14,811 bases of DNA, taken from IMG/VR virus record IMGVR_UViG_2548877010_000018. The stretch is one strand, 5' to 3'. The notes below the pieces were generated by a model. It did not search any database and had not been told where the DNA came from. It saw only the letters and a program-made list of their open reading frames with translations. Position 1 is the first letter of the stretch; every line of letters begins with the position of its first letter. This DNA comes from a virus (Duplodnaviria > Heunggongvirae > Uroviricota > Caudoviricetes). Position numbers and translations under genes: made by a program. This document shows, piece by piece, positions 3,855 to 6,842 of this stretch.

Positions 3855-4508
3855 ATGAAATGGTATGAACTGGCTAGATCCAGAATGAAAGAGCTCGGCA
3901 TAACTCAAGAGAAGTTAGCCGAAGAGCTAGGTATGACGCAGGGTGGAATTGGACACTGGTTGCGCGGATCTCGTCATCCATCTCTTAGTGATATTGGTGT
4001 GGTGTTTAAATACCTTGGTATTGATAACATATCATTCAACCACGACGGGACATTTTCACCTGTTGGCGAATACTCATCGGCCCCAGTTAAAAAACAATAT
4101 GAGTACCCTGTTTTTTCTCATGTTCAGGCTGGGATGTTCTCTCCAGAACTCAGAACCTTTACCAAAGGTGATGCGGAGAGATTGGTAAGCACAACCAAAA
4201 AAGCCAGTGACTCTGCATTCTGGCTTGAGGTTGAAGGTAACTCAATGACCGCACCAACAGGTTCCAAACCTAGTTTTCCTGACGGGATGTTAATTCTGGT
4301 TGACCCTGAGCAAGCTGTTGAGCCCGGCGATTTCTGCATAGCCAGACTTGGTGGTGATGAATTTACCTTCAAGAAACTGATCAGGGATAGCGGTCAGGTG
4401 TTTCTACAACCACTAAACCCGCAATATCCAATGATCCCATGCAATGAGAGTTGTTCCGTTGTGGGGAAAGTTATCGCCAGCCAATGGCCTGAAGAGACGT
4501 TTGGGTAA
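3855..4508 (+). CDS. cI: CI-type prophage repressor with LexA-like (S24) autocleavage domain
   Basis: C-terminal half ([21 protein letters not shown]...EVEGNSM...FKKL...[11 protein letters not shown]) matches lambda cI as recalled, including the Ala-Gly cleavage site and Ser/Lys dyad. N-terminal HTH domain is not lambda-like. ORF track starts at 3807 on TTG; ATG 3855 (SD aagga 7 nt upstream) or 3849 is the likely start. Confidence 0.85.
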
Positions 4509-4882
4509 AGAGGATAGATGGAGTTTAATGGCCATGAGTATCAAGCGGTCAAAAAGAAGTTCATCTATTCATTGAAAGCATAAGGCCATCTGAGTATATC
4601 CGTAATGATCTGGATATTGTCTATAACATCAATGACCGGACGATAGATATCGGTGAGCAGCGTCCTGTATGGCAGGGTGAGGCAGGTGAAAAAACGTCCT
4701 GCCATCAACAAGAATCAAGTGCATCCGCTCTCTGGACAGATGGAAAATTTATTGGATGCAAAAAGATATGAAATAACACCTGTATAGCACGGAGCTTTCT
4801 CTGACCGATGCACTTGAAGTTGTTAGGGCTGACCCAGCCTGCTGTTTCTTTAGGTAAGAGAAAAGAGATTTAGGAGATGAAA

Positions 4883-4909
4883 GGTCGCAGAGGTGCGGCC
4901 TTTTTTATT
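4883..4909 (+). terminator. Intrinsic terminator downstream of cI
   Basis: Hairpin ggtcgca-gagg-tgcggcc (7-bp stem, one G-U) followed by ttttttatt. Confidence 0.6.
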
Positions 4910-4935
4910 GAGAGTGGATCTTGAACGGAAATTCT

Positions 4936-4977
4936 CAAGACTTGAGTCTTGCATGCAAATCAATTCCTGGATAAACT
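4936..4977 (+). promoter_or_regulatory. Candidate sigma70 promoter with overlapping 16-bp palindrome upstream of the 173-aa ORF
   Basis: Palindrome caagact-tg-agtcttg (4936-4951) overlaps a -35-like ttgcat (4949-4954); 17-bp spacer; -10-like taaact (4972-4977). Confidence 0.4.
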
Positions 4978-5009
4978 CGATCTGAGTCAATAACTTAGAG
5001 AGAGAGCAA

Positions 5010-5531
5010 ATGGCAAAGTCAAACGTTAGCGTGCAGGCATTCAAGGACTTCCTTGAAGAGCTTATGTCGCTGAACATAATGAAGGAGGCCACCGCTCGAA
5101 ATTTAAAAAACTCATCCGCTCGCCTCTTAACGGTAGTCCAAGAAGAGGAAATGGGTGATGTTACTCAGCTTGATGTGAATGAGCTTGCCGAGCGATACAT
5201 CAACGCAACTGAGCCGAAGCCTAGCGACAGCAGCATTACTGCATATAAAAGCCGCATGGAAAGTGCAATCAAAAAGTTTGTAGCTTTCCAGTCTGGTGAA
5301 GAAATCCCATACACTCCGATTGACAAAGAATCCAGTGAGGAAAAAGATTTGACTGGCGAACCAACAAAAGTCGAAGGCAAGGCTAATGCACTTCATACCT
5401 ATGATCTTCCAGTAGTTCTTCGACCTGAATCAGGGGTTACAGTAACGATTAAAGGCATTCCTAACGATATCACAAACGAAGAAGCCGAACGCATCTCTTC
5501 AATTCTGAAGGTTTACGTTCGGCCTCAATAA
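5010..5531 (+). CDS. Hypothetical protein (173 aa), immunity-region accessory gene in the rexAB-equivalent position
   Basis: Longest ORF in the cI-to-pL gap, with a protein-like E/K-rich composition and no motif I recognise. Own candidate promoter upstream and terminator downstream; appears AT-richer than neighbouring genes. Confidence 0.6.
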   Translation: MAKSNVSVQAFKDFLEELMSLNIMKEATARNLKNSSARLLTVVQEEEMGDVTQLDVNELAERYINATEPKPSDSSITAYKSRMESAIKKFVAFQSGEEIPYTPIDKESSEEKDLTGEPTKVEGKANALHTYDLPVVLRPESGVTVTIKGIPNDITNEEAERISSILKVYVRPQ

Positions 5532-5704
5532 TGCAAAAGCATTCAGCACAATGTCCAACTCCCCAGTCCGACATTGATGCTGTTTAACCAGAGCCTCCAA
5601 AAGGAGCCCTTGTTAAGGTACACAATATTTGCGATGTAACCTTAGCGCGTCTGGTACATTTTTTCAAGCGGTTGTAGGGCTGCCGCCAATATGAGAAAAC
5701 ACAG

Positions 5705-5827
5705 ATGTCTACATACAATTTGAATGACCAATTCGATCGAGAAGTTCATGTGAATGCCTATGAACGGATAAGGCATGGAAATCTTGAACATGTGTGTGAG
5801 CATTATCGCTCAAGGCCACACCGCTAA
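5705..5827 (+). CDS. Possible small ORF (40 aa) immediately upstream of a terminator
   Basis: ATG at 5705, stop TAA 5825-5827 (MSTYNLNDQFDREVHVNAYERIRHGNLEHVCEHYRSRPHR); terminator begins 8 nt later. Weak SD; may be non-coding. Confidence 0.2.
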   Translation: MSTYNLNDQFDREVHVNAYERIRHGNLEHVCEHYRSRPHR

Positions 5828-5834
5828 TCATCAA

Positions 5835-5861
5835 CCCGGCCTCCATGCCGGGTTTTCTTTT
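5835..5861 (+). terminator. Intrinsic terminator closing the immunity-region moron
   Basis: Perfect 6-bp stem cccggc/gccggg with loop ctccat followed by ttttctttt. Confidence 0.65.
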
Positions 5862-5997
5862 CCTCTCGCCCAAAAAAACACATAACCAATTGTATTTATT
5901 GGAAAATAAATAGATACAACTCACTAAACAACGCAATTCTGATCTCTCCTTACATCGCCGAGGCAATACACCCACGCTAAAAAACAATACTATTAAA

Positions 5998-6070
5998 TAC
6001 AAAGCGTTGTAAAAAAACGCCCCGTTTTAGAACAAATTGTATTGACCAAGTGAAGTACATATCGTACTAT
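5998..6070 (+). promoter_or_regulatory. Candidate pL promoter with OL-type operator palindromes
   Basis: -35 ttgacc (6042-6047), 17-bp spacer, -10 tactat (6065-6070). Palindromes tacaaagcgttgta (5998-6011), aaaacg-ccc-cgtttt (6014-6028) and acaaattgt (6033-6041) share ACAA/TTGT half-sites with the OR region. Confidence 0.5.
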
Positions 6071-6115
6071 TTAACCATCAGCAGGACGCTGGAAGCCAAA
6101 TGGAACAGACTGGCA

Positions 6116-6161
6116 GGCTCTTTAAACAACGTCGACTCTCGACTACGTGGCTGAAAAGCCA
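6116..6161 (+). promoter_or_regulatory. nutL-like site (boxA + boxB)
   Basis: boxA-like ggctctttaaacaa (6116-6129; compare rrn boxA tgctctttaacaa) and boxB-like hairpin tggctgaaaagcca (6148-6161), about 100 nt upstream of the N-like gene. Confidence 0.6.
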
Positions 6162-6259
6162 GATCACCCAACCACATAAGCTGTGGGATGCAATGCCGAA
6201 GCAACCGTCTCAGGAGGAGCTTCGAGATTGCATCGCCAAAGTTTATTCGGGAGGAATCT

Positions 6260-6532
6260 ATGTCCAGAAAAACAGAATTTAAAGGCACCGCAGCTTCTCG
6301 CCGTAGAGCTCGTCGCGCAAACCTGCAAAGTCAGGAGGCGATTAGCTCCGACAAACTACACAGGCCAACCCCATCACGAGTGGTCTTACAATGCAAACGC
6401 AAACCAGCAATGAGAGCAGAAGTAATAACACTGACAACGTTGACCAGAAAATATGAAGGCTCAACTTGTCTTCCAAATGTAGCTCTTTACGCGGCAGGCT
6501 ACCGTAAATCCAAACAACTGACAGCAAGATGA
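6260..6532 (+). CDS. N: N-like transcription antitermination protein (arginine-rich motif)
   Basis: ATG 6260 preceded by SD gggagg. N-terminal arginine-rich motif GTAASRRRARRANLQ typical of lambdoid N proteins; sits downstream of pL/nutL candidates. The longer track ORF from 6188 lacks an SD. Confidence 0.65.
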   Translation: MSRKTEFKGTAASRRRARRANLQSQEAISSDKLHRPTPSRVVLQCKRKPAMRAEVITLTTLTRKYEGSTCLPNVALYAAGYRKSKQLTAR

Positions 6533-6590: not shown

Positions 6591-6842
6591 ATGGAATTTC
6601 ATGAAAGTGCGATTTGTGATTTTCGCGCTAACGCAAATTCAGTAAAACCACAGCCAATTGCAGTTCTTTTTAAAACAATGGGTGCGTGGGCTGTTTTATG
6701 CTTCGCCGCTGACGACACTGACGCAAGAATGGCAATAGGACAAGAGATGGAGATGGACCCGACAAACGATGAATTCATAATTTATGGCGCTCCATCTAAT
6801 TACTTACTTGATACCTGCAACATTTACAACAAGGCTGCCTGA
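6591..6842 (+). CDS. Hypothetical protein (83 aa) in the ral-equivalent position
   Basis: ORF with strong SD (gaggtga) 5 nt upstream of the ATG, located between N and ea10. Sequence does not match lambda Ral as I recall it. Confidence 0.55.
   Translation: MEFHESAICDFRANANSVKPQPIAVLFKTMGAWAVLCFAADDTDARMAIGQEMEMDPTNDEFIIYGAPSNYLLDTCNIYNKAA

Follow-up and report, generated by a model that had tools for sequence, protein, structure and literature searches.

The window analyzed here, a stretch of 14,811 nucleotides (nt) from virus record IMGVR_UViG_2548877010_000018 (Caudoviricetes), is the immunity region of the Shiga toxin (Stx) phage VT2-Sakai, prophage Sp5. Positions 4509-6187 were 100% identical to VT2-Sakai (Sp5), Stx1-converting phage, Stx2 II, Nil2, 1717, 2851, and the PA series. 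Between the repressor gene cI and OL/pL, in the slot that lambda gives to rexAB, the window carries a three-part autonomous cassette composed of the gene ECs1184, a structured leader RNA of 160 nt, and the small gene ECs1183, and this trio of protein, RNA, and mini-protein recurs in many prophages and in nonphage chromosomes. We tentatively propose, with well under even confidence, that ECs1184 is a self-repressing regulator that gates the mini-protein in an addiction-like manner, and that its loss would be lethal through the mini-protein or through transcriptional read-through into pL-N-kil.

A sequence-only reading of this DNA had placed the unit in the rexAB position, and the placement proved exact. 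Positions 5833-5948, which begin with the downstream terminator, matched the DNA immediately 3' of rexB in lambda-type prophages at 87.5%, and the cassette thus occupies the precise rexAB slot. As with lambda rexA-rexB, it lies between cI and OL/pL in the same orientation and ends at a terminator homologous to the post-rexB sequence. However, rexAB depends on pRM or pLIT, whereas the cassette has its own terminator-insulated promoter, contains a structured RNA and a mini-protein, and was reported not to be deletable. No homology of the cassette proteins to RexA or RexB was detected with Pfam, PHROG, or NCBIfam.

The two terminators proposed earlier both folded. The upstream intrinsic terminator (4879-4909, plus strand; stem at 4879-4904 followed by a U-tract) had a free energy of −15.9 kcal/mol and a z-score of −4.5, and is kept in Salmonella with differences confined to the loop. 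The downstream intrinsic terminator (5833-5861, plus strand; stem at 5833-5854) had a free energy of −14.3 kcal/mol and a z-score of −4.2. Each has the GC-rich hairpin and U-tract of a rho-independent terminator, and the upstream one is predicted to insulate the cassette from cI/pRM transcription. In O157:H7 strain 2149, the insertion sequence IS1203 lies at 4882-4885, at the 5' foot of the upstream terminator (locus L087, 1177-2487), and an IS3-family element splits the match likewise in strain NJS001. The insertion puts 1.3 kb between cI and the cassette, and the cassette beyond it is intact, a natural indication of independence from pRM. The description of the unit as self-contained therefore stands: it has terminators on both sides and a position-conserved promoter, remains intact beyond IS1203, and moves to different genomic positions.

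ECs1184 (5010-5531, plus strand; also H0093, Sp5 ORF23, and WP_001130059) is the open reading frame (ORF) of 173 amino acids (aa) predicted at this place. Its product had been described as having no recognizable motif, a view that does not hold, as its N-terminal domain has the core-binding (CB; SAM-like) fold of tyrosine recombinases. This four-helix domain spans residues 8-94 and is followed by an acidic disordered linker (97-127) and a C-terminal beta-beta-alpha domain (130-169). The similarity to Phage_int_SAM_1 is at the level of fold only: this Pfam model (PF02899) scored 14.4 bits (E = 0.047) against ECs1184, below its gathering threshold of 22.3 bits, and its best match within the CB family reached E = 3.6e-4. 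No match to the catalytic domain (PF00589; R-H-R-Y site with the tyrosine nucleophile) was found in 38 members of the family. Since the catalytic domain is absent and just the linker and the 45-residue beta-beta-alpha follow the CB domain, ECs1184 is not a recombinase. ECs1184 resembles lambda Int, XerD, IntI4, and Cre in its core-binding domain, at no more than 15% identity and below all Pfam thresholds, but lacks their catalytic domain. It also differs from MrpR (SPbeta) and SroF (phi3T), recombinase-derived repressors of Bacillus phages that keep the full recombinase body. Polar and basic residues that are invariant in the family (T28, R30, N31, N34, S35, Y79, S81, and R82, in the motifs TARNLKNS and YKSR) fall on helices 2 and 4, which, by analogy with Cre and XerD, would contact the DNA groove.

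Several other searches were negative. Neither the 173-aa nor the 40-aa product had a Pfam or NCBIfam family at threshold, and PADLOC-DB 2.0 gave zero matches for both. Searches of PDB sequences, started from one sequence or from a profile, returned noise only, and Foldseek comparison with viral structures (BFVD) returned nothing below an E value of 0.05. A perfect 8+2+8 palindrome, TTCAAGGACTTCCTTGAA, was observed within the ORF at 5040-5057, where it encodes F-K-D-F-L-E; Serratia retains a perfect palindrome through paired AAG-to-CAG and CTT-to-CTG changes. The palindrome may act as a second operator or as an RNA hairpin, or may have arisen merely from complementary codons.

The interval between ECs1184 and the 40-aa ORF (5532-5704) is a structured RNA rather than an empty spacer. 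Folding with RNAalifold of eight sequences from at least five genera yielded a covariation-supported leader RNA, termed type B, at 5544-5697 (plus strand). Its helices are H1 (5544-5560/5565-5582), P2 (5587-5592/5650-5655), H2a (5595-5598/5603-5606), H2b (5612-5619/5639-5646), and H3 (5668-5672/5682-5686), and a U-tract at 5661-5666 is predicted to pair with 5692-5697, the GAGA ribosome-binding region of the 40-aa ORF. On a model-fitted alignment of only eight sequences (the window, Salmonella, Cronobacter, Yersinia, and four further loci), which leans toward structure, the 43 pairs of the type B model (R2) were 94.5% paired versus 30 to 47% in slid controls, 11 pairs changed on both sides versus 0 to 3 when slid, and 0 of 500 shuffles reached the observed values. 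The window leader alone had a minimum free energy of −52.5 kcal/mol (z-score, −3.3). One-base indels in the loops break all frames, which rules out a conserved reading frame in the leader. The apex of H1 (window 5555-5570; Salmonella locus L009, 6543-6558) reads CCAACTCCCCAGTCCG in E. coli and, reverse-complemented, CAGACTGGGGAGTTGG in Salmonella, so that the stem is kept by a flip of the hairpin.

Related cassettes carry other leaders in the same place. Type A (model R1), 160 nt located 3' of the CB gene, was found in 28 of 42 sources (the window and 41 related loci); its 29 pairs were 95% paired versus 33 to 48% in slid controls, and 13 pairs (56 cells) changed on both sides versus at most 5 pairs (9 cells) when slid. 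A third type, type C, begins with a true terminator after the CB gene and was seen in SH2026Stx1, YP3, L012, and L057. With filters off, model R1 gave no significant match to window positions 5532-5704 (4.5 bits, E = 0.18), and model R2 detected neither type A nor type C. Types A and B are alike in layout, have two short motifs in common (TAGCG and TCAAG), and are probably homologous; because covariance models fail across types, the leaders are not claimed as one family. Rfam 15 contained no counterpart for these RNAs: the best match at the window leader was GadY (E = 0.9), nothing reached the gathering score at the leader in nine related loci, and the type A leader matched nothing better than E = 0.11.

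The leader is followed by ECs1183 (H0092; 5705-5827, plus strand), which encodes a 40-aa His/Cys-rich mini-protein of phrog_21154 (PHROG, 5e-8) and was dropped from the RefSeq annotation. Its product begins MSTYNLN and ends VHVNAYERIRHGNLEHVCEHYRSRPHR. The gene is kept in six genera or lineages, including Salmonella, Cronobacter, Yersinia, L085, and L086, and in the cassette of SH2026Stx1 at 40% identity. Compared with Salmonella, it shows seven synonymous and two nonsynonymous changes, and its dN/dS (ratio of nonsynonymous to synonymous rates) is 0.06-0.10, a substitution pattern that indicates a real gene under purifying selection and argues against its earlier description as optional. A membrane toxin of the hok type was ruled out for ECs1183, as its product is not hydrophobic and has an isoelectric point (pI) of about 7. 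Other cassettes have different mini-proteins at this place: in 20 of 38 loci it is a Cys/His protein of 57 aa (phrog_33859), and in further ones a CxxC...CxC zinc-ribbon protein. A small ORF directly downstream is the best-conserved neighbor of the CB family (20/38 loci). Homologue searches with two of the mini-proteins returned unnamed proteins only.

The family to which ECs1184 belongs is large and has no Pfam model. A word-indexed search found 44 relatives, all from Enterobacterales and all annotated as hypothetical. With a full profile search, the number of cluster representatives at 50% identity rose to 642, of which 237 had E ≤ 1e-10. Among the best 150 of the 642 representatives, nearly all were 155 to 210 aa long and matched almost the whole length of the profile. 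The protein is 73 to 83% identical across prophages that differ in their repressors, N genes, replication modules, and integrases, and in lambdoid prophages the cassette lies between an S24 repressor and N irrespective of the type of immunity, N, or replication. Elsewhere, it lies beside tail and lipoprotein genes (L016-L018), adjoins an integrase and gin in Yersinia phage YP3, adjoins dinI at the edge of a prophage (L086), and stands beside Rep_trans and an integrase in Tara Oceans contigs. In marine bacteria, the CB-family gene is found among housekeeping genes, where it also occurs as a lone gene. Of four distant contexts, at about 25 to 30% protein identity, three carry the R1 RNA (E = 4e-7 to 1.5e-3), followed by a homologue of the 57-aa protein, and L094 shows neither. 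Type A sites (L089, 5577-5730; L092, 5590-5745; L088, 747-897) stand with a CB gene and the 57-aa homologue on marine or environmental gammaproteobacterial contigs, away from any recognizable prophage, and one of them adjoins Rep_trans and an integrase. Detection of the trio at this level of identity outside prophages indicates that it is old and is not restricted to phages.

A sigma-70 promoter is predicted at 4949-4977 (plus strand), with a -35 element TTGCAT (4949-4954), a 17-nt spacer, a -10 element TAAACT (4972-4977), and a predicted start at about 4984. Because its hexamers agree with the consensus at just 7 of 12 positions, a consensus scan did not list it. Promoters with the same -35/17/-10 layout stand at this place in Salmonella, Cronobacter, Yersinia, Proteus, Serratia, and a metagenome contig, and most of them have a better -10 (TAGAAT). 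The earlier suggestion of a promoter overlapped by a palindrome can thus be placed, as a prediction, on a layout conserved in position across genera, with hexamers that are weak in the window. The palindrome is a perfect 7+2+7 inverted repeat, CAAGACT and AGTCTTG around TG (CAAGACTTGAGTCTTG), at 4936-4951 (no strand assigned); it overlaps the -35 and is a candidate operator. In this respect the sequence-only reading was correct, but the size of the repeat is within chance: the window holds eight perfect palindromes with 7-nt arms versus about four expected (0.27 per kb, or about one per 3.6 kb). The palindrome was also ruled out as a repeated site, being present in a single copy in the window with the overall count at chance level. 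Its weight comes instead from the AAGACT/AGTCTT half-sites that the five genera named above (with a direct-repeat arrangement in Serratia) and the metagenome contig retain over the -35 and immediately 5' of it. The motif near the promoter also varies with the protein subfamily: in a subfamily at 41 to 46% identity, the half-sites of the window give way to inverted repeats of the CGATCG type, whose arms reach 12 bp.

Several further features were observed around the promoter. GATC sites lie at 4917-4920 and 4979-4982 upstream of ECs1184, and GATC is enriched about fivefold in the -130 to -1 interval of CB-family genes (52 observed versus 10.6 expected, 26 loci), with a significance that is inflated by the kinship of the loci. 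Most of these sites lie within the CGATCG-type inverted repeats or adjoin the -10; the enrichment may reflect methylation-sensitive or SeqA-sensitive expression, or just operator sequence. A block of the 5' untranslated region at 4990-5006, CAATAACTTAGAGAG, is nearly invariant from E. coli to Proteus and Serratia in the midst of a diverged promoter and may be a translational control site. A sigma-54 reading of a conserved CTGG near the -10 was ruled out by its spacing.

Published data on Sp5 bear on the function of the cassette. Mondal et al. (2016) deleted 43 Sp5 genes or blocks in frame in a lysogen in K-12, with the exception of ORF23 (ECs1184) and ORF21 (ECs1180), which could not be deleted (PMC5155283). 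These authors judged both deletions to be probably lethal and the genes to be required for stable lysogeny, and found no conserved domain (PMC5155283). There is precedent for essential regulators in prophages, such as RacR (PMC5700373). Sakai cultures produce the ECs1184 protein, which came close to significance in RNA-interactome capture, at a false discovery rate (FDR) of 0.065 (2025 Nucleic Acids Research [NAR] study, PMC7618764). Literature listed under the accession of ECs1184 or under H0093 consisted of unrelated papers only, and the supplements of the Sakai ribosome-profiling paper had no entry for the locus.

We tentatively favor a model in which ECs1184 would be a regulator that binds nucleic acids in a sequence-specific manner and uses the repeat over the -35 to repress its own promoter, and in which ECs1184 and the leader would together hold the mini-protein almost silent. 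Loss of ECs1184 would derepress the cassette, and derepression would lead to overproduction of the mini-protein or to transcription past the terminator into pL-N-kil. Either outcome would be lethal or inducing, which would account for the failure to delete ECs1184. The cassette would then be an addiction-like (toxin-antitoxin-like) module of regulator and effector, carried as a moron. Consistent with this model are the autonomy of the unit, as seen in its terminators, its conserved promoter and repeat, the IS1203 insertion, and its occurrence at unrelated positions; the invariant polar and basic residues of helices 2 and 4, which support a binding role; and the change of the near-promoter motif with protein subfamily, which supports an operator role. 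Likewise, the leader structure with its pairing to the ribosome-binding site and the terminator of the third leader type support gating of the small ORF, and the failed deletion, together with the RacR precedent, fits a regulator of this kind. The model is also favored by the coding status of ECs1183, by the persistence of a small ORF directly downstream even at 25 to 30% protein identity in marine contigs, and by the RNA-interactome capture of ECs1184 just short of significance.

Several observations weigh against this model. The failed deletion is a negative result whose cause Mondal et al. left undetermined (PMC5155283), and the signal of ECs1184 in the polynucleotide kinase (PNK) assay was near that of the green fluorescent protein (GFP) control and background (PMC7618764). 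ECs1184 is acidic (pI, 4.85; net charge of the N-terminal domain, −2), which counts mildly against DNA binding, and the palindrome at 4936-4951 taken by itself occurs at chance frequency. The joint change of operator and protein could merely be linked divergence. ECs1183 is neither hydrophobic nor basic, and no known toxin, antitoxin, or defense family in Pfam, NCBIfam, or PADLOC matches the cassette proteins. Finally, three unrelated types of mini-protein lie 3' of nearly identical CB proteins, which argues against direct neutralization of one protein by the other.

Comparison with known modules gave partial likenesses. Like RacR-YdaS/T and PaaR2-PaaA2-ParE2 of O157 cryptic prophages, the cassette has a small putative prophage regulator that was reported as not deletable, an inverted repeat at the promoter of this regulator, and a small gene downstream; it differs in having a 173-nt structured RNA between the genes and an exchangeable partner gene. 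An inverted repeat over the -35 and a protein with a DNA-binding type of fold were observed, and the operon may be autoregulated in the manner of a type II toxin-antitoxin module. The fold of ECs1184 is unrelated to the helix-turn-helix (HTH), ribbon-helix-helix (RHH), and AbrB folds of type II antitoxins, and toxicity of its partner is hypothetical, with the failed deletion of ECs1184 (PMC5155283) as the sole, indirect evidence. With type I toxin mRNAs (hok, tisB, and zorO), the cassette shares a long conserved structured leader that pairs with the ribosome-binding region of a 40- to 57-aa ORF, but its mini-proteins are soluble and His/Cys-rich rather than hydrophobic, and it has no identified antisense RNA gene and no Rfam match.

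An alternative raised by the sequence-only reading, which we regard as unlikely, is that the cassette is superinfection-exclusion or abortive-infection cargo, expressed in the lysogen to sense and stop an infecting phage with the mini-protein as effector. RexAB, Stk, and BstA act against phage from the same neighborhood, and the cassette has the exact rexAB position with a homologous terminator, as well as the insulation and mobility of a moron. In relatives, the same gap holds other cargo, namely DUF3024 or a 345-aa protein, and a tightly gated small effector would suit an abortive-infection design. However, no PADLOC, Pfam, or NCBIfam defense match was found, in marine bacteria a single gene of the family, on its own, is also found amid housekeeping genes, and the only experimental data point elsewhere: ECs1184 is reportedly not deletable, whereas we know of no report of rexAB being impossible to delete. 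Because toxin-antitoxin-like modules often act in abortive infection, an exclusion function is compatible with the addiction-like model.

It is more doubtful still that ECs1184 binds the leader RNA just 3' of its own gene instead of DNA, and thereby controls translation of the mini-protein or forms a ribonucleoprotein (RNP). Such a role would suit the strict linkage of protein and RNA across very distant members of the family, the pairing of the leader with the ribosome-binding site, and the nearly significant RNA-interactome capture (FDR, 0.065). It is at odds with a PNK cross-linking signal similar to that of the GFP control and with the occurrence of three leader types, mutually undetectable by covariance models, after similar proteins. 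In addition, core-binding domains are known as DNA binders.

It is equally improbable that the cassette is a moron of neutral or accessory nature that only seems essential, through an artefact of construction or an effect in cis such as altered read-through into pL; the role of the protein would then have nothing to do with lysogen viability. In favor, the deletion failure is unexplained and the unrelated ORF ECs1180 behaved alike, and the cassette faces pL-N-kil with a single terminator between them. However, all three parts show strong purifying selection and very wide conservation, and 234 of the 5426 complete E. coli genomes carry the unit intact, with at least 80% of the stretch present. 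A role as a lysogeny-maintenance factor, in which the catalysis-free CB domain occupies core-type or operator-like sites on prophage DNA and stabilizes repression or blocks Int excision as a decoy, is very unlikely, since the protein stays 73 to 83% identical among prophages with differing repressors, N genes, replication modules, and integrases, the family is also found outside immunity regions and outside prophages, and the repeat motif occurs once only in the 14.8-kb window.

The Sakai outbreak strain carries Sp5 as its Stx2 prophage, and Stx is produced once the prophage is induced. If ECs1184, located beside cI, cannot be removed from the lysogen, it would be a second control point of lysogen stability. 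New for this locus are the fold of ECs1184, a large family outside Pfam, an RNA absent from Rfam, and a mini-protein dropped by annotation. The trio is conserved far beyond phages and may define a new type of small mobile module. It is possible, although we consider it somewhat doubtful, that the cassette exemplifies an undescribed, ancient tripartite module that ranges from marine Gammaproteobacteria to Stx phages and combines a CB protein derived from a recombinase with a structured RNA of its own and a mini-protein of the zinc type. Such a module would constitute a new class of system, acting in addiction or immunity or as a regulatory RNP, and Stx2 lysogens would need it to remain viable or stable. 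The unexplained deletion failure becomes a set of specific questions concerning operator binding, leader-dependent translation, toxicity of the mini-protein, and read-through into pL.

The gene order of the window is P and O (on the minus strand), cII, cro, cI (ending at 4508), the cassette, OL/pL, nutL, N, ECs1180, ea10, cIII, kil, gam, bet, and exo, and the cassette is oriented toward pL-N-kil with one terminator between. The unit had been thought AT-richer than its neighbors. This was true relative to bet, exo, and P (GC fraction of about 0.52 versus 0.445 for the unit), but not relative to cI (0.454), cII (0.455), N (0.473), or ECs1180 (0.425), and an AT-rich island was ruled out because the GC content of the cassette equals that of cI and cII.

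Outside the cassette, the stop codon of cI (at 4508) is directly followed by the remnant of a DUF3024 gene (4518-4857, plus strand), decayed by two frameshifts and one in-frame stop. An intact Proteus DUF3024 used as a tblastn query matched 4518-4857 across two frames (E = 3e-7), and the decayed stretch aligned with the intact 113-aa copy of phage SH2026Stx1, itself a Pfam DUF3024 protein (2.4e-31). Intact copies stand at the equivalent place in Proteus prophages and in SH2026Stx1, and the arrangement of cI and DUF3024 followed by the cassette was seen repeatedly there. Since the remnant lies between cI and the terminator at 4879-4909, this terminator closes a cI-DUF3024 transcript. The literature on DUF3024 was uninformative.

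Some minor features of the early-left region were also noted. In a Salmonella lambdoid prophage (L009), Rfam sRNA-Xcc1 was found in this region at 9714-9797 with a score of 83 bits, which exceeds the gathering score, and has no relation to the cassette. In the window, ECs1180 (6591-6842), just 3' of N, encodes 83 aa belonging to phrog_2471 and had no Pfam match. The start of N differs between annotations, giving 114 aa or 90 aa, and a 60-aa ORF in RefSeq, ECs_5705, spans nutL upstream of N (6100-6282 and 6188/6260-6532 for the two features together).

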